Below, piece after piece: positions 2,944-19,534 of a stretch of DNA of 20,000 nt (position 1 is the stretch's first letter; each line of letters opens with the position of its first letter). Source of the stretch: an uncultured virus (IMG/VR IMGVR_UViG_2788500088_000017) (Duplodnaviria > Heunggongvirae > Uroviricota > Caudoviricetes). The position numbers and the translations under genes are program-made. Where the stretch lies: the IMG/VR virus record IMGVR_UViG_2788500088_000017, one strand, 5' to 3'. The notes under the pieces were generated by a model. That model saw nothing but the letters and a program-made list of their open reading frames with translations, ran no database searches and had not been told where the DNA came from.

Positions 2944-2969
2944 ATTCACCCCGACGCGGGAGAACCTAT

Positions 2970-3164
2970 TTATGCTTGCGGCATGAAAATGAACGATGCA
3001 TCCCACACTCCGTTGCCTTCAACGCAATGCACCTCGGCTTTGGCAAAGACACCGTAAGGGATGGTGCGGTAGATGAAGAGTTCCGAGGGGCGCGCATGTT
3101 TACGGCAAGGGCAAGGTGCGTAGGGGATGATGATAACATCAAGCGGTTCTTGGGCTGGAATCAT
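2970..3164 (-). CDS. Small hypothetical protein (64 aa, CPC/HC)
   Basis: ATGA overlap at 3161-3164, GAGGTG RBS, begins MIPAQEPLDVIII. Confidence 0.6.
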   Translation of the reverse strand: MIPAQEPLDVIIIPYAPCPCRKHARPSELFIYRTIPYGVFAKAEVHCVEGNGVWDASFIFMPQA

Positions 3165-3472
3165 AGGTGACACACCTCGTGCAGTTCGGGGAACCAATTT
3201 GGGTCCATCAAGTCTTTGTGGCTCATCGTTCCGTAGAACTTGTCCCATTGAAGCAACTCCCTGTTCTTGTTGCTCATCTGTCCAGCGATGAGTTTCAAGC
3301 GAATGAGTTGGACCATATCCGGTTTGTTGAAGAAGACGCGGCTCGCCTCTTCCCATGTAGATTGCATACAGAAGCATTGGAAGCAGTAGTCCGCGCTACG
3401 CTGAAGGTCCGAGTCCAGCCACACATTGGAGGGTTCGTCACATGCGAAGCAAAGGCTGTTCTCGCCCTTCAT
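3161..3472 (-). CDS. Zn-finger protein (CxxC...CxxC), 103 aa
   Basis: ATGA overlap at 3469-3472, GGAGG RBS, CFAC and CFQC pairs. Confidence 0.7.
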   Translation of the reverse strand: MKGENSLCFACDEPSNVWLDSDLQRSADYCFQCFCMQSTWEEASRVFFNKPDMVQLIRLKLIAGQMSNKNRELLQWDKFYGTMSHKDLMDPNWFPELHEVCHL

Positions 3473-3813
3473 TCTTCCTCCTCCTTGACGATGGCGATAG
3501 GTGTAGACTGACCGTAGGTTCTGTTGTAGTTGTTGATGCCGAGCGCGGTGGCATGTGTCATCATTTGAAACACATTGTATTCGCGGAAGGACGCAAGGTA
3601 GGCAAGCCCTTCTGCGTATTCGCGCTTTTCCAATTCTGCTTTGATGACGCACAACTTGAGGATTTCACGACGGATGGTGCGCAAATGTTTGAGTGCCACC
3701 TTCTTGAGTTTGTTGTCTCCAAGGTCGGAGATTTTCGCTTGGTGTCCGTCGTGCATCACGACTGTGAAGTCTGCGATGGGTAGTCGTGTGTATTCTTCTT
3801 CTGTTTCGGTCAT
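3469..3813 (-). CDS. Hypothetical protein (114 aa)
   Basis: Coupled by ATGA overlaps at both ends. Confidence 0.75.
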   Translation of the reverse strand: MTETEEEYTRLPIADFTVVMHDGHQAKISDLGDNKLKKVALKHLRTIRREILKLCVIKAELEKREYAEGLAYLASFREYNVFQMMTHATALGINNYNRTYGQSTPIAIVKEEEE

Positions 3814-5771: not shown

Positions 5772-6226
5772 TCTTTCTCGCCTCCTACATATTCGGTGTA
5801 ATCCTTCATCGTTGACTCATTGCCAAAGAATGCACCATTGACCCAATCGTATGCTCTTTTGAGTTGTTCACGCAATCGCTTGACTTCCGCGAGCAGTAGT
5901 GGTGCGTCTACGATGAGGTTCATGTCGGCTCGCTTACGAGGCAACCTTCCACTTGAATGAGAGCAGTAAGTAAAACTCTCAAGAGGTGTGTCGGTTCTNT
6001 TTCCTGTTTGACAGTNGGATGAAAGGTCAAGGATGCGCTCATCCCAATTAAGAGCATCGTGAGTTTCAAGCGGCTCTCCTGTCTTTTCATCAACCGCCCA
6101 CCACAAATCATCGGGGTCGGGTTTTACATCATCGTGCAACGGGCAAAGAATCCAATCACCATCATTAAACTCATACCACACCCATTTGTTTTCTGTATGT
6201 CCTTCGTATTTGTCTGTGTCAATCAT
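5768..6226 (-). CDS. Phage-type hypothetical protein (YEGHT...LIxDAPLLLAEVKRLRE)
   Basis: Coupled ORF. HTxxxW N-terminus and DAPLLLAEVKRLR C-terminus resemble common small phage proteins. Visibly more AT-rich than neighbours. Confidence 0.7.
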   Translation of the reverse strand: MIDTDKYEGHTENKWVWYEFNDGDWILCPLHDDVKPDPDDLWWAVDEKTGEPLETHDALNWDERILDLSSXCQTGXRTDTPLESFTYCSHSSGRLPRKRADMNLIVDAPLLLAEVKRLREQLKRAYDWVNGAFFGNESTMKDYTEYVGGEKE

Positions 6227-6732
6227 TCTTCTTCACCTCGTCCGTAGTTGGAGGGAGCGTGGTCAGCCCAGCGCAGATGTTCGCGCGTCTTCTCGTAGTA
6301 GGCGTTGTTGGAGTCCAAGGTCTCCTGCTTGAAGACAATGTCAATCTCGCCGTCAATGTAGAAGTTGCCGAAGAGCGTTTGTTGTCCGTGNGTCATGGTT
6401 TTGTCAATCATGCCAGCCACCTCGTTGAGTCGCTTCATCATTTTGTCGTAGCCTGCGATGGTGTCCGGGCTTCTCAAGTCGGGCTTGCCCCACTTAATGG
6501 TAGCGGCGCGGGTGTAGCGGTAGAGCCAGCGTGCGTTCTCGGAACTCACAACAGCCCAGCGCACAAGAGAGTGATTCATCGGCTTGGTGTTCATCTCGGA
6601 AACATCGGCCCCTTCGTGTTGGAATGCGGAGACAAGGATTCGCGCGCCTTCGTAAGCGGCAGATTCGCAGTCAAGCCAGCAAAGACTATTCGCGCTCTTC
6701 ACAGGGTTTGGGTCAAGGACGAAGAAGGTCAT
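6223..6732 (-). CDS. Divergent paralog of the endonuclease V-like protein at 7667-8212
   Basis: MTFFVLDPNPVKSANSLC vs MNIFILHEDPTIAARMHC; NHSLVRWAVVSSENARW vs NHPCTRWVGDSHYNFLW. Confidence 0.7.
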   Translation of the reverse strand: MTFFVLDPNPVKSANSLCWLDCESAAYEGARILVSAFQHEGADVSEMNTKPMNHSLVRWAVVSSENARWLYRYTRAATIKWGKPDLRSPDTIAGYDKMMKRLNEVAGMIDKTMXHGQQTLFGNFYIDGEIDIVFKQETLDSNNAYYEKTREHLRWADHAPSNYGRGEEE

Positions 6733-7061: not shown

Positions 7062-7339
7062 TGTTCACCACATCCTGCACACTCATATTCAGTATCTCTC
7101 CAAACATTGCACTTTTGGCATATTTCAAAACCACAGTCATTCAGTAAATCATGNCAGTCTCTTAGTTCCGATTTTAGTTCTTCTATTGCGCTGTTCGCAT
7201 CTTTCAATTGCTTTTCCAAAACAACAACAGGGTTATTTTCACTACCTGCCCAACCGCAACGGCCACAAGCATAGTAATCATCATCAACTTCATTCGCCAT
7301 TCGGCCACAGTCTTCTCCTTGACATTCTATTTGTTTCAT
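7058..7339 (-). CDS. Small double Zn-ribbon/coiled-coil protein
   Basis: CxxxxC, CGRC, coiled coil, CQKC, CAGC. AT-rich gene. Confidence 0.75.
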   Translation of the reverse strand: MKQIECQGEDCGRMANEVDDDYYACGRCGWAGSENNPVVVLEKQLKDANSAIEELKSELRDXHDLLNDCGFEICQKCNVWRDTEYECAGCGEQ

Positions 7340-7494
7340 TCTTCTTCACCTCGCGGTCGTAGTGCGTCCATTACTGATGACACATCGTTGCCGCTGATGT
7401 GTCCATCGCCAACATTGGAGAGCCAGTNGCGTATGAACTNCCAATGCGTTTCCAATTGTTCAACGCGGTCTTCCAATGTCTCTTGAGGACTCAT
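7336..7494 (-). CDS. 52-aa protein, DGHISGNDV paralog A
   Basis: Not in the track. MSPQETLEDRVEQLETHWXFIRXWLSNVGDGHISGNDVSSVMDALRPRGEEE, ATGA-coupled at both ends. Confidence 0.75.
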   Translation of the reverse strand: MSPQETLEDRVEQLETHWXFIRXWLSNVGDGHISGNDVSSVMDALRPRGEEE

Positions 7495-7568
7495 TGTTCA
7501 TCACCTTGTAGTGGTTTCAAAATGGTGTCCATCACTCTTAGCACATCGTTGCCGCTGATGTGTCCATC
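7381..7568. repeat. 27-bp perfect direct repeat (7381-7407 and 7542-7568)
   Basis: CACATCGTTGCCGCTGATGTGTCCATC occurs twice, encoding DGHISGNDV in both paralogs. Confidence 0.95.
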
Positions 7569-7670
7569 AGCAACCTCGTCAAGCCAAAAGCGTAGGGTTT
7601 CCCATTTGTTTTTCAACCGTTCGTTTTCTTCTGTCAGTCGGGCCTCGTTCATATTCGTTTGTCGGGTCAT
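7491..7670 (-). CDS. 59-aa protein, DGHISGNDV paralog B
   Basis: Not in the track. MTRQTNMNEARLTEENERLKNKWETLRFWLDEVADGHISGNDVLRVMDTILKPLQGDEQ, ATGA-coupled at both ends. Confidence 0.75.
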   Translation of the reverse strand: MTRQTNMNEARLTEENERLKNKWETLRFWLDEVADGHISGNDVLRVMDTILKPLQGDEQ

Positions 7671-8212
7671 TGTTTCACCTCATTGTTTACCCACCATGAA
7701 GGCGCGGGTGTGCCTTTTTCCCACCAAGGCGGAACGAGGGAATCCCCTCGCTTGAACCGCTTGGTGAAGTAGTATTCGCGGTATGCTTCAACCGCGGTGT
7801 ATTTCTGCTCGTCCATCAAGTGGTCGTTGCCATTGAAAGCGCGAGCGAAGGGCGTGAGTCCGCCCGAAGGAACGAGATAGTCCATCTCGGACATGTGGAG
7901 TAGCGCGTCGTGACAAGCGTGCCGCCTGCCGTATCGCTTGGTGTATTCTTCATAGAGTGCGAGGCCGTGTTCAACGGCCCACAAGAAGTTGTAGTGGCTA
8001 TCACCAACCCACCGGGTGCATGGATGGTTAGGGTAGCCGCCAATCCAAGGTGTGCCTTTGCTTGTAAGCGGCATCTCCTCGTCTCGCGCGCCGTGTCGTC
8101 GTAGTGCATCGCTGACTTCTTGCGTCAGTTCAAGGGGCATCTTCACCGCGTGTTTGTCACAATGCATTCGCGCGGCGATGGTTGGGTCTTCGTGTAGTAT
8201 GAAAATGTTCAT
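7667..8212 (-). CDS. Pyrimidine-dimer DNA glycosylase / T4 endonuclease V-like family protein
   Basis: Family signature MNIFxLxxDPxxAAxxHCDKHxxKMxLE, NHPCTxW, EYTxRYGxxH, TPFA, VEAYRxYY, PxWW. Confidence 0.8.
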   Translation of the reverse strand: MNIFILHEDPTIAARMHCDKHAVKMPLELTQEVSDALRRHGARDEEMPLTSKGTPWIGGYPNHPCTRWVGDSHYNFLWAVEHGLALYEEYTKRYGRRHACHDALLHMSEMDYLVPSGGLTPFARAFNGNDHLMDEQKYTAVEAYREYYFTKRFKRGDSLVPPWWEKGTPAPSWWVNNEVKQ

Positions 8213-8439
8213 GCGTCCAGCCTCCTGTCAATCTCAACACAGTTCATCATCCAAAACATCATCACATTGCGCCAGTCCTTCATCGTGAAAGGGTTGCCCT
8301 GCGCGTCTTCTGCGTCGGGGAAGTGTTCAGCGAGGTAGAGATGCGCGCTCATCATGTTGCCGTAGTTGGTGTCGGAGTCGCGAATGACTTTGAGAAGGAT
8401 GAGGTATTCTTTCCACTCTTCGTATTTCTCTTCGTCCAT
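8209..8439 (-). CDS. Small helical hypothetical protein (76 aa)
   Basis: TGATG overlap at 8437-8441. IRDS...NMM...YL...F...WM pattern resembles small phage proteins. Confidence 0.7.
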   Translation of the reverse strand: MDEEKYEEWKEYLILLKVIRDSDTNYGNMMSAHLYLAEHFPDAEDAQGNPFTMKDWRNVMMFWMMNCVEIDRRLDA

Positions 8440-8792
8440 CAGTTCCACTCTCCTGTCGTTGGGTCAAAGGTTGGTTCGCTGGATGGCGTCGGCTCCACCT
8501 TCTTCAAAAGCGTGATGTGCATGTCCCATAACTTCGTGCCAAACGCGCGGTTGGTCTGCTTGACGATGGCCTTCGTGGATTTGATTTTCTCCACGATGCC
8601 TTCACCGTGTCCGCCATCGCGAAACCTCCAACACACGATGTCGCCAACGCGCAAGGATGCCTTGATGTTCGCTCGTCGTATCTGTCGTTTCGCCATGATG
8701 ACATCGCGCATGTATTTGTGCAGGTNGCGCAGTTCGTCTTCACTCATGTTTTCAATTTCTTTCTTCATTTTTTGTGGTATCATTTTTCTCAC
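8439..8792 (-). CDS. SH3/KOW-like beta-barrel protein with PTFDPTTG tail
   Basis: LRVGDIVCW...GIVEKIKSTKAIV...W...LLKKV pattern. GTGA overlap. Confidence 0.65.
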   Translation of the reverse strand: MRKMIPQKMKKEIENMSEDELRXLHKYMRDVIMAKRQIRRANIKASLRVGDIVCWRFRDGGHGEGIVEKIKSTKAIVKQTNRAFGTKLWDMHITLLKKVEPTPSSEPTFDPTTGEWN

Positions 8793-9286
8793 TCCATTTC
8801 TCCTGTTAGTGGATTGAATGTTTTGGCCTTCTCTTCATTGACGATGTAAGGCGCGATGAAGCAACCCCACGCACCGTCGGGACAGACAATATGCATGACG
8901 GTTCCCTTGAACCAAATGGTGAGATGGTCTTCCTTGCGCGTGTAATGTTTGATGAACATCTTGATGAACTTCGGTTCAAAGTGTGCGTCGCGATACTTCC
9001 ACAACTCTTTTTTCTCCAAAGACTTGAGAGCCATGCGAAGGTTCTCAACGGACATGGTCACAGGATTTGACATGACACTATCCATCAACTTCTCATTCTT
9101 CTCCGCGCTGTAAGGCTGACCGTGTTTGGTCATCATGTCAAGACGAGCGCGGTTGGAAAAGGGAACAATCATCATCGCATGCGATGGGTGAACGATGCCG
9201 GAGTATCTGTGCTGGGAACCGCTAAACTTGAAGGAGTTNTTCTCCCCCGCGAGCCAGTCTTCGGTTGTCATCCTCATGTCAGTCAT
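8789..9286 (-). CDS. Hypothetical protein with PCNA-like motifs (165 aa)
   Basis: Start 9286 (ATGA overlap). VHPSHAMMI resembles PCNA DPSHVAMV; DHLTIWF...MHI...GCFIAPYI resembles the PCNA C-terminal strands ending LAPRI. Confidence 0.45.
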   Translation of the reverse strand: MTDMRMTTEDWLAGEXNSFKFSGSQHRYSGIVHPSHAMMIVPFSNRARLDMMTKHGQPYSAEKNEKLMDSVMSNPVTMSVENLRMALKSLEKKELWKYRDAHFEPKFIKMFIKHYTRKEDHLTIWFKGTVMHIVCPDGAWGCFIAPYIVNEEKAKTFNPLTGEME

Positions 9287-9573: not shown

Positions 9574-10082
9574 TCGCTCACCTCCATCGTGCTGACACCT
9601 TGGAACTCGTATCCCCAATTGATGTAGTCTGCGAGAAGACTGGCTTGCGTGTTTGCGATGGCTTGCTTGCGCTCTACCTTGTCGGAGAGTAAGTGAGCAT
9701 CAACCAACTCGCGTAGCATGAGAAGCACGCTTTGCTGGTTGCCAAGGTCAAGCGAGCCAACTGCGGCGCGTGTTATTCCTGTGGGAATGAGTGCCTTGAC
9801 CAAGTCGTAGCAAGCCATCTCCGAACTGCTTCCGCTTTCGGTGNAGCGTCCTTTGACGCGTATGACTGAACGGCTGATGTAGTCGTTCTCCCATTGAGAA
9901 CGCTCGCGAATGCTCACGCTTTCAATGCCGACTTCGCCGGTGGCGTATGTCCAAAAGTTCATCGGCCATCGTCTTCCCGTGTTCTTACAAACGACATCGT
10001 AGACCTTGCGGCGTCTTTGTTGTTCAACAAGAGCCGCGTCCATTTCTGCTTCGGTGTAGATGGGTTCGTCGTCGCCACTCAT
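9570..10082 (-). CDS. Hypothetical protein (170 aa)
   Basis: Coupled ORF with GGAGG RBS. Confidence 0.75.
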   Translation of the reverse strand: MSGDDEPIYTEAEMDAALVEQQRRRKVYDVVCKNTGRRWPMNFWTYATGEVGIESVSIRERSQWENDYISRSVIRVKGRXTESGSSSEMACYDLVKALIPTGITRAAVGSLDLGNQQSVLLMLRELVDAHLLSDKVERKQAIANTQASLLADYINWGYEFQGVSTMEVSE

Positions 10083-10654
10083 TCGGAAGCCTCCGTGGAT
10101 GGGTCGGCGTCAAGTTGCCAATGTTTGGATTGCGTGCCTTCGGCGGTGACGAGGTTGGCGACGAGGAAGTCGTCCAAGCCAGCAGTCTCACCCCATTGGT
10201 CGCGCTGGAACATGTCCCAGCGAGCAGGAGCAACACCCATCGGTGGCGGTGTCTGTTCCCCTCCGGTGGCAGGGTTGAACTCCTTGGGCATGGAAGGACA
10301 AGGTGCAGACTTGAGACTGCCGCGGTGTCCTCTCATGTTGAGGTCGCGTGCTTCGTAGACCCAGCCCCAAGCGGCGCGGCACTTGCTTCCCTTGCAGGGA
10401 CAGTCGCCAAGCGGGATGACAAGGTGGTCCATGAAGGCGAGTCCTTGAATGCGGTGGTGGCCCGTGCCGTAGTCGTCGGGCTTGCTTTCAAACTCGTCCC
10501 AGTCACCGTCGCAGTAGGTGCGGAACATTTGTTCCCGGTTGTCATCGTTGACATCAATAACAAACTGAACCTCGCGGGTCAGTTCACCATCGTTGGTCTT
10601 CTTGTTCTGTGCGTTGAGGTTCCATTGTTTTGATACATCTTCCATGTGTTTCAC
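10079..10654 (-). CDS. Hypothetical protein (191 aa; CPC...C, FNPATG)
   Basis: Coupled at both ends. Confidence 0.75.
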   Translation of the reverse strand: MKHMEDVSKQWNLNAQNKKTNDGELTREVQFVIDVNDDNREQMFRTYCDGDWDEFESKPDDYGTGHHRIQGLAFMDHLVIPLGDCPCKGSKCRAAWGWVYEARDLNMRGHRGSLKSAPCPSMPKEFNPATGGEQTPPPMGVAPARWDMFQRDQWGETAGLDDFLVANLVTAEGTQSKHWQLDADPSTEASE

Positions 10655-11369: not shown

Positions 11370-11534
11370 ACTCTTGCAGACGCGCTCATCATTCCATGAG
11401 CAACGATAGTCAAGTGGCGGGGGAGGCATGGCGAAACAAACAAAAAAGCCATACCTCCCCCATGAAAGAGAGCCGTGGTGTTTTACTTGCTTATCCACGG
11501 AGGCAAGAGTGAGAGGGCAGGGGGGTGCTACCCT
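11370..11534 (-). ncRNA. Candidate structured RNA / leader element
   Basis: Five helices: a closing stem ACUCUUGC/GCAAGAGU around three hairpins, plus a 5' hairpin. Both plus-strand mismatches become G-U pairs on the minus strand. Confidence 0.55.
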
Positions 11535-11543
11535 ATGCTGACA

Positions 11544-13556
11544 TCAAGCCGTTGCTTGAACGATGGCGAACTCTTTGAGTTGCGAAGCAGACTGCGACTC
11601 AAGCGTGACCATTTTCCCTTTGATGGGAACAACCATTTTCTCCGGGTTCTGTTGGAACCAGTCGCGCATGGCAGACAAGTCATCAACTTCACCGTTGGTG
11701 TGGTTAGCGTAGACAGCCAAGTTTTCCTGTGCGATGCGCTCAAAGAGGTTTGTCGTTGCGCCGGACTTCTTCATGAATCCTTCAACNCCTTGCTCTTGTC
11801 CTTTCATGACGCGCTTCCCGTTCTCCGATACATAGATGGGGTTGTGGGTCTGCGTGCCGGTGACTGCTTGCATGGCGTGGAACATGGTTCCCGCGGCTTC
11901 CTTGTCGGCCTCGGTCTCAAGGTTGACATAGTGGATGTCGGGGTCGCTCCAACCCTTCACCACATTGTTGTAGACTTGACCGCCAATCAAAGTGACGGCG
12001 GAGTGGTCCAACTTGAGTGGGGTAATGCTTCCGTCTGCGTTCTTGACATGGGGAAGCGAATCAAGGTCACCGACCTTGACCTTACCCTTGGGTCGGCTGA
12101 CGAGTCCGTTGTGGTCAAGCACCGTCATGAACTTGTCAAACATGTTCATCTCAATGGGTAGGAACCGACAGATGTGAGTCGCGAGAAGCGTGCGGCGAGC
12201 GTCGTTCAATGCGTGTCCAAGTTGCGTAGCAAACTGGTCCGGGTTGAACTCAGCGACGCTACCCTTCATGTGGCGAACATTGAGGATGCTTTGCGTGCCT
12301 CCACGCATAGCGAGGTTGCCACAGTAGGTGCGAAGCACAGACATGATACCGCGCAAAGCAGACTTGCCATCGTGGGAGTTCATGATGGAGACACCGATGC
12401 GGTGTCCACCCTCTTCCTCAACGAGCGCGTCGGAGATGCGGTTTGCTGACAGGTTGACATACCCAAAGTTGTTGAGACCCGCGGCTGATTCCTTGCGGGT
12501 CTTCTTGGCAAAGCCGGACAAGTCAAGGTTGAGCATGGCGCGTCCTCCATTGTTGAACGAGAAGGCGTCCCATGTGATGACTTCCTCACCGAACTGTGCG
12601 TTCATGGCCTGCACCACTTGGATAACAGGCTTGAAAACATCGGGATGCTCAACCGTTGCGAAGTTGGAACCAACTGCGCGGTTGAGAATATACCCGACGG
12701 GGTGGTCGTCGTCCTTGAGAGTGGGGTTGACGATGACGCTGATGCGGTCTTCACCCTTGCCGTTGGTGACGGGGTAGTGCTTGACATCGTGAGAGACAGG
12801 GTCTTGCACTTGGATGACGAGGGGGTATCGTTCCGTGCGGAAGTTCCACGCTCCCTTGAGGTCAGCACCACGGTTGCCGGTGGCGATGGCTTTCGCGATG
12901 GCGGTGTTCATGCCTTCTTGCGCGGCGGCATCCTTTTCAGCACGCTCCTTGCGAAGAATGGCAGTCTTCTCAGCCGCCTTCAAACGCTTCTTCATCTGCG
13001 TCTTCTTGTCGTCCTCCGGTGTCTGTGAGATGTCAACCGCGGGTCCATCAAAGGAAGGGACGGTGTCATCCCACGATTCGTTCTCATCAAACGATGGGGT
13101 GTCGTCAAACGATGGGGTGTCGTCAAACGATGGGGTGTCGTCAAACGATGGGGTGTCATCAGTCGCGTCAGCGGCAAGGTCAAGGATGGTCGGGAGTTCT
13201 GCGCTGGGCAGGTCTCCAAACTCCATCCAAGCGTCGGCTTCGTCCTTGAACGATGCATCACCGTCGGACGCTGATGCACCGTAGAGAGAGAACAGTTGAG
13301 GCGCGTCTTCCTTGAGGTCAAGGAAGAGCGTCACNGTCTCTCCGTTCATGGCACTCCATGCTTTCGTGTCGTCAAGCGCAACTTGCTCACCGTCAAGAGT
13401 GACGGCGACCATGTGCTTGCGCTGGAACCACATCGTGGTTGGTTCTTGGGTAGATGCGTTCAAGTATTTCACTTGAAGCATCGTTGGCTTCATGGCTTCC
13501 ACCGGACCGCGAATGACGGTTCGGCTTGGTTTTTGGTTTTCGTTTTCCTGTGGCAT
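11544..13556 (-). CDS. DUF932/DUF945-like protein with acidic PSFD-repeat N-terminal extension (670 aa)
   Basis: NSHDGKSAL...LRTYCGN matches the DUF932 signature NSHDGS...RxxCxN; also VGSNFATVEHPDVF and LNVRHMKG. ATG 13556 behind GAGGTGA. Confidence 0.8.
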   Translation of the reverse strand: MPQENENQKPSRTVIRGPVEAMKPTMLQVKYLNASTQEPTTMWFQRKHMVAVTLDGEQVALDDTKAWSAMNGEXVTLFLDLKEDAPQLFSLYGASASDGDASFKDEADAWMEFGDLPSAELPTILDLAADATDDTPSFDDTPSFDDTPSFDDTPSFDENESWDDTVPSFDGPAVDISQTPEDDKKTQMKKRLKAAEKTAILRKERAEKDAAAQEGMNTAIAKAIATGNRGADLKGAWNFRTERYPLVIQVQDPVSHDVKHYPVTNGKGEDRISVIVNPTLKDDDHPVGYILNRAVGSNFATVEHPDVFKPVIQVVQAMNAQFGEEVITWDAFSFNNGGRAMLNLDLSGFAKKTRKESAAGLNNFGYVNLSANRISDALVEEEGGHRIGVSIMNSHDGKSALRGIMSVLRTYCGNLAMRGGTQSILNVRHMKGSVAEFNPDQFATQLGHALNDARRTLLATHICRFLPIEMNMFDKFMTVLDHNGLVSRPKGKVKVGDLDSLPHVKNADGSITPLKLDHSAVTLIGGQVYNNVVKGWSDPDIHYVNLETEADKEAAGTMFHAMQAVTGTQTHNPIYVSENGKRVMKGQEQXVEGFMKKSGATTNLFERIAQENLAVYANHTNGEVDDLSAMRDWFQQNPEKMVVPIKGKMVTLESQSASQLKEFAIVQATA
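13087..13158. repeat. 4 x 18-bp tandem repeat (DDTPSF x4)
   Basis: TCAAACGATGGGGTGTCG units at 13087, 13105, 13123 and 13141 (last base of the final unit differs). Confidence 0.97.
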
Positions 13557-13574
13557 GTTGTTCACCTCGGAATG

Positions 13575-14156
13575 TCAAAGTGCGAAGTCCTCCATGACTT
13601 CGGCGGGGATGAATGACCCGGTGGTCGGGTCAAATGTAAGTGGTGTTTCCTCATCAAACGATGGGGCTCCATCAAAGGTTGGAACCTCATCAAAGGTTGG
13701 AACTTCTTCGTCAAAGGTCGGAACCTCATCAAAGGTTGGAACTTCCTCGTCGCGCGACATGGAAGTCGCTTCACTTGTAGGTTTATCAACTTTGGCGTCG
13801 CGCGAGATTGAAATCAAAGACGATTGTATTCGCACGCCGCACTTGGATGTGCAAGCGAGGTAGTGTTCTGTCTCATCGGTGGAGAGTCGTCCGTGAAAGT
13901 GAGCGAGTTCACCGTCGCAACGAGGACAGGTGTAGCCCTTGCTCACATCGTTGTGAAAGTAGTCCGCGTTGATGGTGAAACTCATTGATGGGTTGGTGTA
14001 ATACTTCCTCAATGTAGAATGGGGTCGTAAGTAAGCATCAACGCACACCTTCTCGGTGATGGTTTCGCGGAAGGTGATGGCGACGAAGTGGTCGCGCAAC
14101 ATCTCCTTGATGGTCGGTCGTTGTTTTGCATTTTGCATTTGGGTCTTGGTGGTCAT
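13575..14156 (-). CDS. Zn-ribbon protein with C-terminal VPTFD repeats (193 aa)
   Basis: ATG 14156 in an ATGA overlap, GGAGGAG RBS. CPRC...CTSKC. Confidence 0.8.
   Translation of the reverse strand: MTTKTQMQNAKQRPTIKEMLRDHFVAITFRETITEKVCVDAYLRPHSTLRKYYTNPSMSFTINADYFHNDVSKGYTCPRCDGELAHFHGRLSTDETEHYLACTSKCGVRIQSSLISISRDAKVDKPTSEATSMSRDEEVPTFDEVPTFDEEVPTFDEVPTFDGAPSFDEETPLTFDPTTGSFIPAEVMEDFAL
13671..13749. repeat. Alternating 18/21-bp tandem repeat (EVPTFD/EEVPTFD), 39-bp period
   Basis: TCAAAGGTYGGAAC core occurs four times. Confidence 0.95.
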
Positions 14157-14335
14157 TGTTTCTCCTCCTTGTTGGTGTCCTTGGGACTGTGAATGCGCAT
14201 TCTTGCGCGGTGTTGTTGGGCTTGTAGCCATGCTCTCGGAAACCAAGGACTGGCGACAGCCTCGGTTGAGACATCTCCGAATTGTTGGTAGACGCATTCG
14301 TCTGTGGTGATGGTGATGGTTGGCTTGTCGCTCAT
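14153..14335 (-). CDS. Small hypothetical protein (60 aa)
   Basis: ATGA-coupled at both ends. Confidence 0.65.
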   Translation of the reverse strand: MSDKPTITITTDECVYQQFGDVSTEAVASPWFPRAWLQAQQHRARMRIHSPKDTNKEEKQ

Positions 14336-14562
14336 TTGCTCGCCTCCCGGAGAACTTGCGGTAGACTGTTTGCTCCTTGTGTTTCGCAGACAATGCAGAA
14401 GTCCGCGCAGTCGCCCTCATTGTGCATTTTGATTTGCGCTTGCTCGGCGGCGTGGTCAAGGGTATGCTTGTCAACTTCGTCCAACATGTAGTTGAGGTAT
14501 TTGATTTCGTTCAACCATGCATCTATGGCTTTCATCACTATGGTGTAGTAGTCTTCGCTCAT
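14332..14562 (-). CDS. Small protein with possible HxxxxCxxxCxxC Zn site
   Basis: HNEGDCADFCIVC; coupled. Confidence 0.7.
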   Translation of the reverse strand: MSEDYYTIVMKAIDAWLNEIKYLNYMLDEVDKHTLDHAAEQAQIKMHNEGDCADFCIVCETQGANSLPQVLREASK

Positions 14563-14879
14563 TCGCTCGCCTCCTCAATGAAATAACGGAAGATGGAGTC
14601 GGGGTCCGTGTGCTTGAGCAAGGTTTGTCGGTGAGCCTTGGCCGCTTCGTATGTAGGGAATGGGCCGTCCGACTCACCACTCTTGTCATCCGTGACCAAC
14701 CACACAGTTGCCGCTTCTTCACTCGTTTTGTAAACGCGAATCTTACCAATGAATGAACAGAATCCATCGCGAAGACTGTCCGCCCAATGCTTCTCCGCTT
14801 CTTCTTTGGTGGTGAAACCGTAGTCGGTCGGTGGGTCGTAGGCGTCGTAGTAGAGAACATAGATTGTTTCGTGAGTCAT
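14559..14879 (-). CDS. Hypothetical protein with repeated FxTxEEA motif
   Basis: GFTTKEEA, YKTSEEA, PFPTYEAA; coupled. Confidence 0.75.
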   Translation of the reverse strand: MTHETIYVLYYDAYDPPTDYGFTTKEEAEKHWADSLRDGFCSFIGKIRVYKTSEEAATVWLVTDDKSGESDGPFPTYEAAKAHRQTLLKHTDPDSIFRYFIEEASE

Positions 14880-15244
14880 TGTCCCTCACCATCCGTTGGT
14901 TCAAAGCCGAAGTCAACGCAGGGCTGAATGTTGTGTTTAGCATGGGCCTCAGCCAAACGGTCAAAGGGGTGAGGTGTGATGTAGGGTGGCGCGTCGCTGT
15001 GTTCAGTTGGCTCAAAGCCGAGGGCTGATTGTAGAAGGTTGTCAGTAGCGCGGTTCTTGGGTGTGAAGTTGTCGGAGAGGGTGCGCTCAACGAAGCGTGG
15101 GATTTCCGCAGGGTCTTCCCAATCACGGAAGAAGTTGAGGCGCTCAATCTGCTTGAAGGCTTCGCTGTAAAGCCAGTCGTAGTTGGTGGGTCGCGCGGCG
15201 TAGCCTTGGTTGTAGTAGATGCTGAAGGTAGGTGCGATACTCAT
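14876..15244 (-). CDS. Hypothetical protein (122 aa; GFEPT twice)
   Basis: ATG 15244 in an ATGA overlap, GAGGTGA RBS. Confidence 0.75.
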   Translation of the reverse strand: MSIAPTFSIYYNQGYAARPTNYDWLYSEAFKQIERLNFFRDWEDPAEIPRFVERTLSDNFTPKNRATDNLLQSALGFEPTEHSDAPPYITPHPFDRLAEAHAKHNIQPCVDFGFEPTDGEGQ

Positions 15245-15438
15245 TCGCTCACCTCGCAATCAATGTTCACCATTGGAGTGTTCGCGGCATGCGCGATGTC
15301 CTCCTTGGTGCAGTTGGTCAAACGCTTGAAGCGCGTGCTTCCACATGTGGTGCAGATGAAGCGAACGGAGATGACCGTGTCGGGGAAGAAGTTGTGCAGT
15401 CTTTGGTTGTCGGTGTGGACAAACTTACACTTCATCAT
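15241..15438 (-). CDS. Small protein with CxxC (65 aa)
   Basis: FICTTCG; coupled. Confidence 0.7.
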   Translation of the reverse strand: MMKCKFVHTDNQRLHNFFPDTVISVRFICTTCGSTRFKRLTNCTKEDIAHAANTPMVNIDCEVSE

Positions 15439-15548
15439 TCTTCTTCACCTCGTGCGGCTTCTGCTTCGCGCAAGAGTCGTGCCTTGCGGAAGGATGTTGT
15501 TCGGTGTTTTGGGTTTGGGGTTTGGGGTTTCGTGTTTTGGTTTTTCAT
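15435..15548 (-). CDS. 37-aa basic peptide
   Basis: Not in the track. MKNQNTKPQTPNPKHRTTSFRKARLLREAEAARGEEE, AAGGAG RBS, ends in an ATGA junction. Confidence 0.6.
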   Translation of the reverse strand: MKNQNTKPQTPNPKHRTTSFRKARLLREAEAARGEEE

Positions 15549-15607
15549 TTCGTTTCTCTCCTTGAGATTGTTGGAATAGATTTGAAGCACGGTGTTGAAA
15601 GCGTGCG

Positions 15608-15952
15608 TCATTGTTTCACCTCATGTGCAGGGTGGGTTTCTCCCTGTTGAACAGGGCCGATGAGAAGGACGCACCATTCTTTTTGGTGCTTCGTTGTGCG
15701 ACCAGCGCGACCCAAAATGAGAGGGTCTTTCCTCAAGAACTTGATGAGTTGTTGAAGGCATGGCATTTGCGCATGACGGAAGGCACGATTGGGACCATAC
15801 TTGCGGACCCAAGAAGGAGGGTTGTAGTCCGCCAACATATCCAGCAAGGCTCGCGCCGTGTAGAATGTGTTGGGTTCTACCATGTCGTGGATGTAAGAAA
15901 GGTAGGTGCTGGCTTTGTCCTTGCGGGTTCTTGAGTTTGGTCTTTCAATCAT
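15608..15952 (-). CDS. Winged-helix-like protein (114 aa)
   Basis: TFYTARALLDML...MPCLQQLIKFLRKDP...KEW; similar to 9283-9573. Confidence 0.6.
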   Translation of the reverse strand: MIERPNSRTRKDKASTYLSYIHDMVEPNTFYTARALLDMLADYNPPSWVRKYGPNRAFRHAQMPCLQQLIKFLRKDPLILGRAGRTTKHQKEWCVLLIGPVQQGETHPAHEVKQ

Positions 15953-16338
15953 TCGTTCACCTCCAAGGCAGACTTGTTGTCAAAGTAGAAGTCCATCGCG
16001 TCAGCCATCAATGCGATGGTGTAGCGTTGGAGTGCTGATTCGTCCAAGGCTTGAACGACACACCATTGCGCGTATCCTTTGGAGCAACCAAACTTCGTCG
16101 CGATGAACGAGGTGTGTTGGTAGATGACCCAAGAACGAAGAGCGTTGTGCTTGGCCTTGGGAGACTGCCGGTTGACGATGTCGTGAAGAGTCTTGACAGT
16201 CTTGAGATGGTCGTCCATAGAACCGTTCCCGTAAGAACCTTCAATGAAGAGGCGGAAGTGTCGGCGCATGAAGTTGTCGCTGTCGTTGATGTCGTTCGTG
16301 TTCAAGGTGGTGATGATGTTCTCCTTGACGGTGGTCAT
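15949..16338 (-). CDS. Hypothetical protein (129 aa)
   Basis: Coupled, GGAGG RBS. Confidence 0.75.
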   Translation of the reverse strand: MTTVKENIITTLNTNDINDSDNFMRRHFRLFIEGSYGNGSMDDHLKTVKTLHDIVNRQSPKAKHNALRSWVIYQHTSFIATKFGCSKGYAQWCVVQALDESALQRYTIALMADAMDFYFDNKSALEVNE

Positions 16339-16559
16339 TCGGATGCCTCCTTGTTGTGGTTCACGATGAATGCATCGCGCTTCTCTTTCGTAGGGAAGAA
16401 GCGTTGATTTGAAGTTGGAAACTCCTCTTGGTTCAAAGCGCGAGAGATGTCAACAAGTCCAAAGCGAGCGAGTCTGTCGTGAGCAACAGCACCGTCGGGG
16501 GTGATGATGGCGACAAAGAACAGCGCGGTTCCGTTGTTGGTGTAGTCAATGGTGGTCAT
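16335..16559 (-). CDS. Small hypothetical protein (74 aa)
   Basis: Coupled; contains FFPTKEKRD. Confidence 0.7.
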   Translation of the reverse strand: MTTIDYTNNGTALFFVAIITPDGAVAHDRLARFGLVDISRALNQEEFPTSNQRFFPTKEKRDAFIVNHNKEASE

Positions 16560-16855
16560 TCGGATTCCTCCTCAAGTCCGCCACGGATGTGGTGCCGGGT
16601 GATGGTGTAGGTGCGAGCCTCGGCAATGAAGCCGTGAGCCAATCGGTCAATGTCGGCTTGGCCTCGGCCACGGATTGCACCCTTGGTTCGGTTTGCGCGG
16701 ATGAGATAACGCTTGAGGTATTGGTGATGGTCAGCATCTCGCTCTTTTTCTGCGGCCTTTCGGCTGTAGAAGTAGCGCGAGTCGTAGACGATACCTTGCT
16801 GGGTGATGATGAGTTCGTAAATCTCGTGTCGGATAATAACACCTGCTTCAGTCAC
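16556..16855 (-). CDS. Hypothetical protein (99 aa)
   Basis: GTGA-coupled; contains FYSRKAAE. Confidence 0.7.
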   Translation of the reverse strand: MTEAGVIIRHEIYELIITQQGIVYDSRYFYSRKAAEKERDADHHQYLKRYLIRANRTKGAIRGRGQADIDRLAHGFIAEARTYTITRHHIRGGLEEESE

Positions 16856-17331
16856 TCTTCCTCACCTCGTGGGTTGGCAACCGAGTCAACGCGGTTTCCT
16901 GTGAGGTTGGCGATGCTGATGTGGAAGAAACGCGATGGGTCAATGTCGTCACCGAGAACACCAAGAGTCAGCATGATTTCTGCGCGCCACAACAAGAACG
17001 AGAGGTAGTTGGAAAGGATGAGGTAGCATGATGCCTTCTCACCTTCTGTCGCGGAGTAAACATCGCTCGCGTTGATGACAACATCGGGTGCTGGTAGGAA
17101 GGTGGGAATCATCTCCTTCATCCACTCGCGAAACTCCCTGTTGGACATGCCGCTTCGCTTCTGCAAAGGCTTGAGGTCGCGGGAAGTGAGGATGGTCATG
17201 TGCGGTTGAGCAATGGCGATGAGGCCGTAGCGCGACTCGCAGTCCTCTTGCAGTTGTCGGACTTGGTAGTCTTGAGGGTGTCCGTTGAGAACATCCGTGA
17301 GGATGAGGGAACCTTGAATGACGAGACTCAT
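16852..17331 (-). CDS. 2H phosphoesterase superfamily protein
   Basis: Two Hx[ST] motifs, PHMTI and FHISI, about 93 aa apart in a 159-aa protein. Confidence 0.75.
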   Translation of the reverse strand: MSLVIQGSLILTDVLNGHPQDYQVRQLQEDCESRYGLIAIAQPHMTILTSRDLKPLQKRSGMSNREFREWMKEMIPTFLPAPDVVINASDVYSATEGEKASCYLILSNYLSFLLWRAEIMLTLGVLGDDIDPSRFFHISIANLTGNRVDSVANPRGEEE

Positions 17332-17603
17332 TGGTCATCGCCTCCGTCAAGGAGAACGCCGTGGTCCTCGTTGGCTTCGTCAAGAAGCGTGTCCAATTTG
17401 TCGGCGGCATCCTGCATCATCTGTTGAGCGCGCTTGTTGCGTAGCCATTCCTCGGCGTGGGCTTTCGTGGGGAACCACATTTCGCCTTCACCGTTGGGGA
17501 AGTTCAATTTGTTGCACAGACCTTGCAGTCCGGTGGTGACAGGGAACGCGTAACCCGACTTGGTGGTAGTCCAAATCGTGACTTTGACTTGCTCGTCGCT
17601 CAT
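17328..17603 (-). CDS. Hypothetical protein (91 aa)
   Basis: Coupled; contains WFPTKAHAEEW. Confidence 0.7.
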   Translation of the reverse strand: MSDEQVKVTIWTTTKSGYAFPVTTGLQGLCNKLNFPNGEGEMWFPTKAHAEEWLRNKRAQQMMQDAADKLDTLLDEANEDHGVLLDGGDDQ

Positions 17604-17704
17604 TGGGATTCCTCCGGTAGAATGAGGATGATGTGGGCGTTGCCATCAACATCAACAGCGTGGGAGAAGAAGGTGCAGTCACCTTGGTTGGTGGCGACCT
17701 TCAT
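17600..17704 (-). CDS. 34-aa peptide
   Basis: Not in the track. MKVATNQGDCTFFSHAVDVDGNAHIILILPEESQ exactly bridges two ATGA junctions. Confidence 0.6.
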   Translation of the reverse strand: MKVATNQGDCTFFSHAVDVDGNAHIILILPEESQ

Positions 17705-17904
17705 TCTTCTTCACCTCGTGAGTTGCTGGTGTCGTTCGGGTGGGCCTCGGCGTGTGCCTTGGCTCGCTGGGAGAGAGGGACGCGCTGTTGATTGGCAGGT
17801 GGATGCCAATGGTTGCGGTGTCCTCCCCGTTCGCTTTCGTTGTGTCGGATAGGACTTGCGTCCTTCCGATTGTTTTGTGTTTTCTTGCTTGTTTTCTTCT
17901 GCAT
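17701..17904 (-). CDS. 67-aa basic, disordered protein
   Basis: ATG 17904 behind GAAGTGA; ends RGEEE in an ATGA junction. Confidence 0.55.
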   Translation of the reverse strand: MQKKTSKKTQNNRKDASPIRHNESERGGHRNHWHPPANQQRVPLSQRAKAHAEAHPNDTSNSRGEEE

Positions 17905-17935
17905 GTTATCACTTCTTTTGTTTGTGTCCTGTGGA

Positions 17936-19534
17936 CTATGATTGGTCAACCAACGCTGGGTTGAATCCGTGGATGTGGTGAATAATTTTGTGGCGTTCAA
18001 GGCCGGTCTCGCGAATGAGTTGGTCAAGCATTCGCTCGTCCCCACCATGCTTGTAGTGGAGATGGAAGATGTGCTTCGTGCCGCTACCACGCATCACACG
18101 ACCGATGGTTTGGACGCGTGGACGAACAGCGTTCGTTCCATTCTGCATGATGAGAACACGAAGAGACGGGGCGTTGAAGCCCTCGCGTAGAGCCTTGCAG
18201 GTCAGCAAGACATCATCGGAGTCTCGCCAAAGACGCAACTCGCGCTGGGCAAACTCCTTCGTGTAGACAGACTCAAGACGGGAACGGAAATCGTCGTTGT
18301 CCAATTCGGGATAGGTCGCGTAGAACAAAGCCACATCATGGGGGTCGTTGCCGATGGGGTTTCCACCTCCGCTGTGATAGACGCGAGGGAACAGTCCAAT
18401 GTCCATGAGCATTTGATTCATGCGTTCAATGGTGAAAATGCTGTCGTTGAAAATGACGGTCTGCTGTGCGATGAGAGTAGGATGCTTGGCGATGTTGAGA
18501 GTCTGCGTGTTGCGGTCCTCAATGGAGTTCTCGGCACGCTTTCGCTTCATCGTCAAGGCATTGTAAATCGCGCAAGGCTCATGGTTTCTCACGCTGTGAT
18601 GTGTTGGAGACAGGTGGCCCTTGCCTATGTCGTTGAGGTGAGCCTTGGCCGCGTGGTATGAGATGCGACACTTGTTGTCCAAGTCCGCGAGGTTCATTGA
18701 TTCCGACGGAGTCGTGGTGACATTGACGACATGGAAGCGGTAGTCCAAGTCATCCTCTTCCGTTCGCGACTGCATGATGGCTTGAATCAATGGCAACTCG
18801 TAGACCACCGGTGCGTTGAGGACTTCGGTGACATCCACACCATCACCTCGTGCTGGTGTTGCGCTCAGTCCAAGCATGGCATCGCCTTGGAACTTCTTGA
18901 AAGTCTTCCTCGCGCCTTCGGCACCAGCACAATGAACCTCGTCGCAGATGAGAAGGATTCGTCCAGCCTTGCGCTTGAACAATTCGGAGTCAACCCACTT
19001 TGAAAGTGAGTTGTAAGTGACAACCAACATCTCCGTGAAGGGAGAGACGGGTTCGTCATACCTCGCGACTTGGTATTGATAGAGTTGCGCGGTGCGGAAC
19101 CAATCAGTAGCGAGAGGGACGGTGGGGACAACGATGACAACGAGGCCGTCGGTATCGTAAAGCCAATCAGCCGCCGCCATGAATCCGAGTCGCGTCTTGC
19201 CAGCACCAGTAGCGACCTTGTTGATGGCGCGCTTGTTGTCAAGACCATGCCACAGATTGATTGCTTCGGCTTGCCAAGGACGCGCCGTTGATTCCATCGC
19301 TTCCGCAGAAGCATAGGGTCGCGAGGCAACACGCTGTTTGTTCTCGGCAACCACTTCATTGAGAGGCTTGAGGGGGACGAGAGAATATCCACCGGTCGCA
19401 GTCGGCATCAACTCCCCGGCGGGGGCTTCCCAAGAGCCTCCAAAGGACGGAGGCTCATCAAAGGTGGGGACTTCACCATCAAAGGTGGGGACGACGACTT
19501 CGCCGTCAAAGGTTGGTGTGTGTTCATAGTTCAT
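17936..19534 (-). CDS. Superfamily 2 DExH helicase (XPB/Rad25/ResIII-like) with N-terminal PTFD repeats
   Basis: ARPWQAEA (Q), ATGAGKT (I), VVPTVPL (Ia), DEVH (II), LSATP (III), LREGFNAP (V), QTIGRVMR (VI). Start re-called to ATG 19534 behind GAAGTGA. Confidence 0.92.
   Translation of the reverse strand: MNYEHTPTFDGEVVVPTFDGEVPTFDEPPSFGGSWEAPAGELMPTATGGYSLVPLKPLNEVVAENKQRVASRPYASAEAMESTARPWQAEAINLWHGLDNKRAINKVATGAGKTRLGFMAAADWLYDTDGLVVIVVPTVPLATDWFRTAQLYQYQVARYDEPVSPFTEMLVVTYNSLSKWVDSELFKRKAGRILLICDEVHCAGAEGARKTFKKFQGDAMLGLSATPARGDGVDVTEVLNAPVVYELPLIQAIMQSRTEEDDLDYRFHVVNVTTTPSESMNLADLDNKCRISYHAAKAHLNDIGKGHLSPTHHSVRNHEPCAIYNALTMKRKRAENSIEDRNTQTLNIAKHPTLIAQQTVIFNDSIFTIERMNQMLMDIGLFPRVYHSGGGNPIGNDPHDVALFYATYPELDNDDFRSRLESVYTKEFAQRELRLWRDSDDVLLTCKALREGFNAPSLRVLIMQNGTNAVRPRVQTIGRVMRGSGTKHIFHLHYKHGGDERMLDQLIRETGLERHKIIHHIHGFNPALVDQS
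19440..19519. repeat. Imperfect in-frame repeats encoding PTFD x3 + PSFG
   Basis: ATCAAAGGTGGGGAC twice plus GTCAAAGGTTGG. Confidence 0.9.

Follow-up and report, generated by a model that had tools for sequence, protein, structure and literature searches.

Why should non-homologous proteins encoded in one viral genome carry the same short acidic peptide, repeated in tandem? This question is raised by a 20,000-nucleotide stretch of the uncultured virus IMGVR_UViG_2788500088_000017 (hereafter the window), in which the motif P[ST]FD recurs in a DUF932-like protein, in the Zn-ribbon protein encoded next to it and at the N-terminus of an SF2 helicase. The motif had been pointed out in an earlier interpretation of the window made without database searches (the sequence-only reading). 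We found that the sharing goes beyond that observation and is a family-wide rule with genome-specific peptides: related viruses repeat another peptide in the same proteins, and this peptide is again common to the proteins of one genome. On the evidence presented below we favour, with moderate confidence, the view that the arrays are multivalent docking motifs that evolve in concert and bind one shared receptor.

The P[ST]FD motif in the window

A six-frame scan of the window located 14 P[ST]FD motifs and one PSFG in minus-strand coding frames, and every site that the sequence-only reading had listed in its four proteins was found again. The proteins and their motifs are the following.

11544-13556, minus strand: DUF932-like protein of 670 amino acids, comprising a beta domain at the N-terminus, the disordered acidic linker formed by residues 118-182 and the DUF932 core
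13140-13151, 13122-13133, 13104-13115, 13086-13097 and 13047-13058, minus strand: five PSFD motifs of the DUF932-like protein
13086-13151, minus strand: array of four DDTPSFD units with an 18-nucleotide period in the DUF932 linker; orthologues have other tandem peptides here
13047-13058, minus strand: terminal linker copy DDTVPSFDG, present family-wide as DDS[TV]PxF[GED]
13575-14156, minus strand: Zn-ribbon protein of 193 amino acids, with GGAGGAG before the start codon, a folded domain with CPRC...C..C, a conserved (T/S)MxR box and an acidic tail
13728-13739, 13710-13721, 13689-13700, 13671-13682 and 13653-13664, minus strand: four PTFD motifs and one PSFD of the Zn-ribbon protein
13653-13739, minus strand: array of four (E)EVPTFD units and one APSFD in the Zn-ribbon tail
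13617-13634, minus strand: FDPTTG within the Zn-ribbon tail, one occurrence of the second shared motif, F[DN]x(1-2)TG
17936-19534, minus strand: SF2 helicase of 532 amino acids, counted from the ATG at 19534; phrog_16
19505-19516, 19478-19489 and 19457-19468, with PSFG at 19439-19450, minus strand: three PTFD motifs and PSFG at the helicase N-terminus
19439-19516, minus strand: helicase N-terminal array of PTFDGEVVV, PTFDGEV, PTFDEP and PSFGG, from the six-frame scan
8463-8474, minus strand: one PTFD in the tail of the 8439-8783 protein, outside the array system and overlapping F[DN]xxTG(E/A/G)[WF][EQN]

One extra PSFD, on the plus strand at 4965-4976, lies antisense to the SNF2 gene and is non-coding. 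The back-translated pattern CCNWCNTTYGAY had 15 matches in the window, compared with 0.57 ± 0.77 in dinucleotide shuffles (15 were reached in 0 of 200), and 14 of the 15 matches are in the coding frame and strand. From amino acid composition, the 34 called genes with their 6117 residues should contain 0.087 P[ST]FD motifs. Since copies within a tandem array are not independent of one another, the effective tally is four arrays or single sites in four proteins, which is still far above expectation.

Tandem Repeats Finder reported a period of 18 nucleotides with 4.2 copies and 98% matches at 13087-13161 (the DUF932 array), and periods of 18 and 39 with 82-95% matches at 13670-13751 (the Zn-ribbon array). 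It reported none in the helicase array at score 30; the units there, read by eye, are 27, 21 and 18 nucleotides long. The TTTGA core is invariant across the motif copies of the window. All three arrays lie in acidic segments, the ratio of D/E to K/R being 20:0 in residues 118-182 of the DUF932-like protein, 18:1 in residues 133-193 of the Zn-ribbon protein and 8:0 in residues 1-40 of the helicase. The AlphaFold2 predicted local distance difference test score (pLDDT) is 25-30 throughout residues 118-182 of the DUF932-like protein, so this linker is predicted to be disordered; the Zn-ribbon tail and the helicase N-terminus were judged by composition. The claim that a non-random motif sits in acidic, disordered segments of non-homologous proteins was thus borne out, as was the excess over shuffled sequence.

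The arrays were also traced in public sequencing runs. In three independent DNA runs the assembled contigs cross the Zn-ribbon array without a gap, and those of two (X2 and X4) also cross the helicase array. The DUF932 array is not covered in X6, and the X2 and X4 contigs are interrupted within it (13116/13128); because the contigs of two independent runs break within this array, short-read assemblies cannot fix its DDTPSFD copy number. One RNA run gave short contigs on three pieces of the DUF932-like gene, which does not prove that the gene is transcribed.

Proteins of one genome share a peptide that differs between genomes

An alignment-based scan identified 19 syntenic DUF932 loci on IMG/VR contigs of up to 105 kb. 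A counterpart of the Zn-ribbon gene lies directly upstream of the DUF932 gene in 16 of them, and the other three begin at or near the DUF932 gene. When the 15 non-redundant genomes were compared, the Zn-ribbon tail and the DUF932 linker of one genome were found to carry the same tandem acidic-hydrophobic peptide, which is PSFD, LDIGDITI, IDWG, NPFAGL, EDMPLT or another, depending on the genome. The pairs are listed below with the Zn-ribbon tail first and the DUF932 linker second.

Window: EVPTFD; DDTPSFD
L002: LDIGDITIDVGDITIDLGG; LDIGEVSLDLDLDIGTIDIGG
L003: IDWG; IDWG
L004: NTMPDL; NTMP(D/S/A/E)
L005: FDMTG; FDMTG
L007: EDMPLTE; D(A/E)PLT(D/E)D
L009/L011: EEF(T/V)FINEN; EEEFTFNE
L010: NPFAGLIAI; NPFAGLS
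L012: NNDDMFIDFG; NNDDMTIDFG
L013/L016: MFDL(I/T)L; MFDLTL
L014: PFIEEDMP; TFVEEDMP
L017: VLDFD; (V/E)DFD

A weaker match was seen in L001 (VSF), L008 (FDM) and L015 ((I/M)DF). The sharing was evaluated by Smith-Waterman alignment of the last 60 Zn-ribbon residues with the DUF932 linker, from which the conserved terminal copy had been left out. The test set comprised 15 of the 20 genomes, since L006, L018 and L019, whose loci begin at or near the DUF932 gene, show no Zn-ribbon gene and the near-duplicates L011 and L016 were dropped. The mean score was 66 for same-genome pairs and 26.5 for cross-genome pairs, and the same-genome pair was the row maximum in 12 of 15 genomes. The observed same-genome sum was reached by 0 of 100000 permutations. 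Composition-preserving shuffles gave a mean of 421 and a maximum of 489 compared with the observed 995, and none of the 300 shuffles reached it.

The same rule extends to other carriers. The SF2 helicase, a label that the domain matches support (ResIII, 5.8e-15; DEAD, 1e-10; Helicase_C, 3.4e-05), has its own genome's peptide at the N-terminus in five of the eight non-redundant genomes with a complete N-terminus (window, L002, L003, L008 and L009). Permutation tests on these eight genomes gave 221/100000 for the helicase against the Zn-ribbon tail and 1571/100000 against the DUF932 linker. The first gene of the early arm encodes the first-early protein, which has 353-390 amino acids, an acidic internal linker and no Pfam family. 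Its linker peptide resembles that of its own genome in all eight visible loci, clearly in six and loosely in L008 and L016. The clear cases are the following.

L003: VDFGD, twice
L007: PLTEE, twice
L009/L011: DDEF(E/S)F and DEFDINFINEN
L014: EFVEEDIAP
G001: APTLEV(D/G), twice

The first-early gene of the window genome, which is predicted to encode P[ST]FD in its acidic linker, lies beyond the window end. The last 60 bases of the window had no match in viral or genome contig collections, so the upstream extension to this gene was not obtained.

G001, one whole relative of 102,931 bp (98% complete and syntenic, its SNF2 protein being 78% identical to that of the window), was searched with reduced-alphabet k-mers without any prior motif. 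The genome peptide LD[IV]GD[IV][ST] ranked first and was found in disordered regions of six proteins, including a 2309-residue protein of the structural arm, which has three tandem EEKPTLDVGDINIG units, and a 517-residue protein of the same arm that adjoins the large terminase. Isolated k-mer hits in a 5109-residue G001 protein were set aside as possible chance. Overall, the peptide units are common to 3-6 proteins per genome.

Selection acts on the peptide and the arrays exchange DNA

The Zn-ribbon tail and the DUF932 linker were also compared as DNA, and matches between them were selected by nucleotide identity alone. Such inter-array matches are in the same reading frame in 28 of 31 cases, and mismatches at codon positions 1, 2 and 3 number 39, 37 and 116. 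Across genes, 337 of the 803 same-residue codons in motif cores differ synonymously; non-synonymous differences are under-counted in this comparison because the cores were defined by a peptide regular expression, which makes it ascertainment-biased. In L007, 111 of 155 same-residue codon comparisons show a synonymous difference, and in L001 serine is encoded by TCA in one array and by AGT in the other. Purifying selection acts on the encoded peptide, not on the DNA. Protein-level selection had already been proposed in the sequence-only reading, and the pattern that would speak against it, a DNA repeat kept in other reading frames, was looked for and not seen.

The accompanying proposal of separate expansions with different codons was not supported. 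The Phe codon of the motif is TTT in 14 of 14 window copies, whereas the genes prefer TTC (163:77), and the last Zn-ribbon unit and the fourth DUF932 unit have 17 identical bases; the arrays therefore share DNA ancestry or exchange. An instance of such sharing is found in L004, where the Zn-ribbon tail (gene 3157-3858) contains about 49 bases identical to the body of its own DUF932 gene (3861-5966). This insert, FRTKTYDMVARSVDPL, is in frame and lies between repeat units; it could have been left by template switching or gene conversion, an assembly chimera being the less likely origin. The arrays thus evolve in concert, through gain and loss of units and DNA exchange between arrays.

Concerted evolution of this kind could also arise with no partner to bind. 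The arrays would then be acidic disordered spacers, serving solubility, charge or DNA mimicry, that slippage and ectopic gene conversion have made alike. The L004 insert, the 17 shared bases and the uniform TTT codons all fit such molecular drive, as do unit sequences that are nearly unconstrained between genomes and helicases that lack arrays altogether. We nevertheless regard it as rather unlikely, given that matches stay in frame with mismatches concentrated at the third codon position and that the same core is retained despite many synonymous differences, as in L007 and in the serine codons of L001. It also does not account for the terminal P-x-F copy, which is family-wide with an invariant P, or for hydrophobic residues held at fixed spacing.

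A conserved terminal copy beside variable arrays

The DUF932-like protein has 37 metagenomic homologues with 36-49% identity. As regards the name given to it in the sequence-only reading, 19 of these homologues have a precomputed PF06067 annotation, and the Pfam match of the window protein itself to DUF932 (PF06067) is borderline and below the cut-off (E 1.3e-4; 22.3 bits against a cut-off of 23). Among the literature naming DUF932, no title or opening of an abstract addresses its function. The fold of the DUF932-like protein had no match in Foldseek against the PDB at E <= 0.001, and the VIA-align wide search gave a best Z of 4.5. The similarity of the N-domain to small beta barrels (Z 3.2-3.6) was too weak to use.

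A variable acidic linker occurs at the same position in every DUF932 orthologue, and an exact repeated 4-mer was detected in the linker of 32 of the 37 homologues. Compared pairwise, the linkers have an average identity of 0.14, the N-domains of 0.38 and the cores of 0.59. Upstream of the terminal copy the linkers carry lineage-specific peptides, such as NPFTAPP, DGIDPFA, DDDFG, MTLDFG, TFAFDDD, EALSF, NTMPD(I/L) and DxPLTDD. The terminal copy itself sits last before the helical part and is well conserved: D163 and P167 are invariant in an alignment of 24 sequences (A1), the acidic-xP box is present in 35 of 37 homologues and F follows the box in 30 of 37. Only in the window genome is this conserved terminal motif itself tandemly repeated. 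The terminal copy DDS[TV]PxF[GED] is probably the ancestral site.

The label Zn-ribbon is based on the conserved CPRC...C..C pattern, and the protein has no Pfam family. A box KV(D/N)(I/K)P...(T/S)MxR, with R135 invariant, precedes every variable Zn-ribbon tail (window 13760-13800; alignment A3). The closest orthologue, P0075 (76% identity), has three PTFD where the window has five, and the sole gap in their alignment, of 13 residues, falls inside the array. Retention of the motif with a variable copy number, a check proposed in the sequence-only reading, is thus seen in this close relative; the arrays of more distant orthologues are without P[ST]FD. What these keep is the position of the array and its acidic-hydrophobic character, P-x-F being found only in the terminal DUF932 copy (30 of 37).

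A second motif in small proteins

The single PTFD at 8463-8474, which the sequence-only reading had counted with the arrays, belongs to a different conserved motif. All nine orthologues of the 8439-8783 protein end in ...F[DN]xxTG(E/A/G)[WF][EQN], eight of the nine with proline at the first x, and PTFD is present in none of them. The description of this protein as SH3-like also found no support, Pfam assigning no family to it or to the 10079-10645 protein. In window proteins there are four copies of F[DN]x(1-2)TG, compared with 0.22 expected, and in G001 six, compared with 1.33 expected. Its copies are as follows.

Window, 8445-8462, 8795-8815, 13617-13634 and 10262-10279 (approximate positions): (K/P)(T/E)F[DN]PxTG
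G001, proteins 11502-11993, 27226-27579 and 22498-23505: the same motif

It usually stands three residues from the C-terminus of small unrelated proteins, and its TGE part is forced by the ribosome-binding site of the next gene. The second motif may be a structural hairpin or another docking tail.

The virus and its replication proteins

Every window gene is encoded on the minus strand; the ribosome-binding sites are of the GGAGG/GAGGTGA type, and there are ATGA overlaps between genes. The window carries 14 N. Few of its proteins have families, namely the SF2 helicase, an SNF2 helicase, the borderline DUF932 and two phrog_624 paralogues. When the DUF932-like protein (tblastn) and the whole window (megablast) were compared with 50,697 phage records in search of cultured relatives, no match was obtained, and a single-protein scan of viral contigs gave no relative. 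The syntenic genome G001 encodes PolB, an RFC-like AAA ATPase, an AEP primase, PD-(D/E)XK and ERCC4 nucleases and a Cpn60-family chaperonin, together with a portal, a terminase (TerL) and a prohead protease. Its major capsid protein has its best matches in HVTV-1 and HCTV-1/5 (33%) and also matches other archaeal viruses. Magroviruses are viruses of marine group II (Poseidoniales) archaea (PMC5434244; PMC10768690). The order Magrovirales is defined by a structural module resembling the one in haloarchaeal tailed viruses, by an archaeal-type replisome (PolB, clamp, RFC and AEP primase), a chaperonin and a genome of about 100 kb (PMC5434244, PMC10768690), and these features were found in the gene content of G001 and of the metagenome contig L033. 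Because the gene set of the syntenic G001 fits the published description, the window is, as judged from gene content, the replication module of a magrovirus, a tailed virus of marine Poseidoniales archaea.

The overlap of contig L033 with bases 1-5348 of the window shows 0 mismatches, and the contig adds 6.9 kb to the genome, encoding RFC, three proteins without assigned function, a 255-residue protein and PolB. The 255-residue protein (L033 2572-3339, minus strand) is the sliding clamp of the window genome: its predicted structure (pLDDT 92.4) has two domains and is matched by Foldseek to beta clamps with E ~1e-13 and a TM-score of ~0.7. For its G001 counterpart, an ESM-Atlas look-up led to gp45-type clamps, and Pfam, NCBIfam and PDB sequence searches gave no match. 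The clamp is 56% identical between the window genome and G001, compared with 68-81% for neighbouring replication proteins. NCBIfam and PDB phmmer searches named none of the divergent replication proteins. The 442-residue protein (675-2003) was suspected by eye to be a ligase, which no search supported.

Several other features of these genomes were recorded. The window has two pairs of paralogues: the small proteins 7336-7494 and 7491-7670, both with DGHISGNDV, and the proteins 6223-6732 and 7667-8212, which are phrog_624 and Pyr_excise-like (E 6.1e-50 and 2.6e-06). Many window proteins end in ...RGEEE, ...EASE or ...GGEE (e.g., 15435-15611, 16852-17331, 6223-6732 and 7336-7494), because their last codons contain the following gene's GAGGTGA/GGAGG ribosome-binding site together with the ATGA start-stop overlap; the GGxE ends of the relatives' Zn-ribbon tails have the same cause. 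The structural arm of G001 contains three giant open reading frames on the minus strand (42893-58222, 72014-78061 and 94996-101928, of 5109, 2015 and 2310 amino acids), and neither the 2015- nor the 2310-residue product has a family in Pfam or NCBIfam.

What the arrays could bind

The explanation that we favour, docking on one shared receptor, can be put as follows. Tandem acidic peptides in disordered segments of unrelated early and replication proteins each present a core of two hydrophobic residues, roughly hydrophobic-x-[F/W/I/L/M]-[G/D/T/N], with the pair at i and i+2 or nearby. The carriers are the first-early protein (internal linker), the SF2 helicase (N-terminus), the Zn-ribbon protein (C-terminal tail) and the DUF932-like protein (interdomain linker), with one peptide for all carriers of a genome that is replaced between genomes. 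The arrays would bring these carriers to a receptor having a hydrophobic pocket and a basic rim, and their copy number would set avidity. Candidates for the receptor are the viral sliding clamp, the viral protein that binds single-stranded DNA (SSB), the DUF932-like protein's variable N-domain or a host hub that changes from one host lineage to another. The N-domain, being more variable than the core, is only a lead as a co-evolving reader, and a host hub differing between lineages would explain the fast turnover of the peptide.

Several observations weigh against docking on one receptor. The same-genome pair was not the row maximum in L001, L008 and L015 (3 of 15), and the helicase array is absent in L007, L013 and L014 (three of the eight genomes with a complete N-terminus). 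The orthologues of the G001 giant in L030 (2203 amino acids) and L032 (2369 amino acids) are without their own genome's peptide, L030 having one DEDAPEFQG, so the G001 giant is not a general carrier; a single-protein scan with the giant found only itself. The 6.9-kb extension, with RFC, the clamp, PolB and their neighbours, has no P[ST]F[DG] in any coding frame. In the AlphaFold2 model (pLDDT 25-30 in the linker) the conserved linker motif is not docked back onto the DUF932-like protein. The C-terminus of the sliding clamp is conserved, and the window genome and G001 have the same PolB tail despite their different arrays, which makes a clamp pocket co-evolving with the arrays unlikely. The diversity of the peptides (PSFD, LDIGDITI, NPFAGL, EDMPLT) makes one conserved pocket hard to picture. 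Finally, because DNA is exchanged between arrays, part of the within-genome matching could be molecular drive with no selection for a match.

A more specific version of the docking explanation, which we put forward tentatively and with some doubt, is that each magrovirus lineage has its own peptide "barcode", read by a receptor that changes its specificity in step, gene conversion switching the carriers together. Such a receptor could be viral, or it could be a host hub in an arms race. If this were true, the barcode would be a rapidly re-codable addressing system by which the virus assembles its replication machinery, and it might also hinder recombination or complementation among relatives that infect the same cell.

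Apart from the molecular drive considered above, four other explanations were weighed. The arrays might be a self-recognition code, in which like arrays bind each other by strand pairing or as condensate stickers and so make their carriers co-assemble. Like-with-like binding predicts just this pattern, arrays that match within a genome while the peptide is free to differ from one genome to the next, and DITIDVGDITIDLG, EEFTFIN and VSFTFVS alternate hydrophobic and polar residues as beta strands do. Many units, on the other hand, have a proline every 6-7 residues (DDTPSFD, EVPTFD, EDMPLTE, NTMPDL), which disfavours strand stacking, all arrays have a strong net negative charge, and the conserved terminal motif does not change along with the arrays. 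On balance, self-recognition appears improbable.

We give a similarly low probability to host mimicry or antagonism, according to which the arrays copy an acidic-hydrophobic tail of the host or dock on a lineage-variable Poseidoniales hub, so that the peptide tracks the host. SSB and RPA tails, the ribosomal stalk tail and the C-terminal peptide of FtsZ are the candidate classes of host tail. The fast turnover of the peptide against folded domains at 59% mean identity would fit an arms race, and all carriers visible in the window are early-arm genes; but known host tails of the acidic-hydrophobic kind are strongly conserved, unlike the arrays. A thermosome query for host genomes returned 80 archaeal loci, none of them labelled Poseidoniales.

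It is very unlikely that the peptide is a packaging or ejection tag that directs its carriers into the capsid, to enter the next cell with the DNA. Such a tag would agree with the presence of the G001 peptide in the 2309-residue and the terminase-adjoining 517-residue proteins of the structural arm, but not with the giant orthologues of L030 and L032; moreover, the consistent carriers are in the replication/early arm and the position of the peptide varies between N-terminus, linker and C-terminus. Least credible is a DNA- or RNA-level element (iterons or protein-binding sites within coding sequence, as the phage lambda origin is embedded in a linker-coding region) with the peptide as its by-product, for although tandem periods of 18-21 nucleotides inside replication genes and the invariant TTTGA of the window recall such elements, the tests of frame (14 of 15 pattern matches in coding frame and strand; 28 of 31 inter-array matches in frame) and of codon position (excess of third-position mismatches; different serine codon families in L001) have largely refuted it.

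Comparison with known systems

The replisome that magroviruses themselves encode is almost complete, and the majority of their early genes are without known function; to our knowledge, no magrovirus has been cultured. In the surface ocean they count among the most abundant archaeal viruses (PMC5434244). Shared peptide arrays are not described in the main texts, supplements aside, of PMC5434244, PMC11706807, PMC10768690 and PMC9879509, and in a full-text literature search on motif, repeat and concerted evolution no title or opening of an abstract describes them. The shared peptide offers a handle on protein partnerships, with the first-early, helicase, Zn-ribbon and DUF932-like proteins as one functional set. 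The arrays are also ready bait peptides, for which the arrays of other genomes are natural specificity controls. They would be a clear case of concerted evolution of short linear motifs across genes, in which repeat dynamics, gene conversion and selection on the peptide act together.

The nearest functional analogue is found in phage T7, where the acidic C-terminal tails of gp2.5 (the SSB) and gp4 (the helicase-primase) dock on the complex of T7 DNA polymerase and thioredoxin. There, too, unrelated replication proteins have a like acidic segment with a critical Phe and a common partner. However, each T7 tail is a single copy placed at the extreme C-terminus, with Phe as its last residue, whereas the magrovirus motif is repeated 2-9 times in N-termini, linkers and tails, with Phe followed by D or G. 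The window motifs are internal, N-terminal or at least 13 residues from the end, and so differ from tails of the T7 or SSB type, in which the chain closes with an aromatic residue bearing a free carboxylate. Unlike the T7 tails, the magrovirus peptide is replaced by another in each viral lineage.

Clamp-binding motifs, such as the PIP box Qxx[LIVM]xx[FY][FY], the bacterial QL[SD]LF and the C-terminal peptide of the T4/RB69 polymerase, are similar in that one short hydrophobic motif, often at a terminus, serves many clients of one ring hub, and the virus encodes its own clamp. DDTPSFD, EVPTFDE and PTFDGEV do not conform to the PIP or QLxLF consensus, having no Gln and no paired aromatics. PolB of the window genome ends in ...LGWDLEAAMGEPRPATYW, a different conserved C-terminal tail without an array. 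Clamp motifs are single and conserved, whereas the magrovirus arrays are tandem and genome-specific. Closer in form are the tandem SUMO-interacting motifs of RNF4, which are hydrophobic cores with acidic flanks, repeated for avidity, that bind a polymeric partner in an extended conformation. The magrovirus cores are likewise acidic-flanked and repeated, but the SUMO-interacting motifs are eukaryotic and have a known receptor; no ubiquitin-like receptor was found here, no search aimed at one having been made. Two features expected of arrays of short linear motifs were found here, a disordered segment (pLDDT 25-30) and a core constrained at the protein level (28 of 31 matches in frame; P167 invariant).

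In evolutionary terms, the nearest analogue is provided by the Borg elements of Methanoperedens, in which in-frame tandem repeats give rise to disordered regions resembling short linear motifs, with fast turnover (PMC9879509). The DUF932 array is likewise a near-perfect in-frame repeat of 18 nucleotides (98%). According to the main text of that study, Borg repeat units are virtually all unique within a genome (PMC9879509). Whereas the Borg units described there are unique to their locus, the magrovirus units are common to unrelated proteins of one genome. The mechanism that we infer here combines shared docking motifs with repeat-driven disordered regions.

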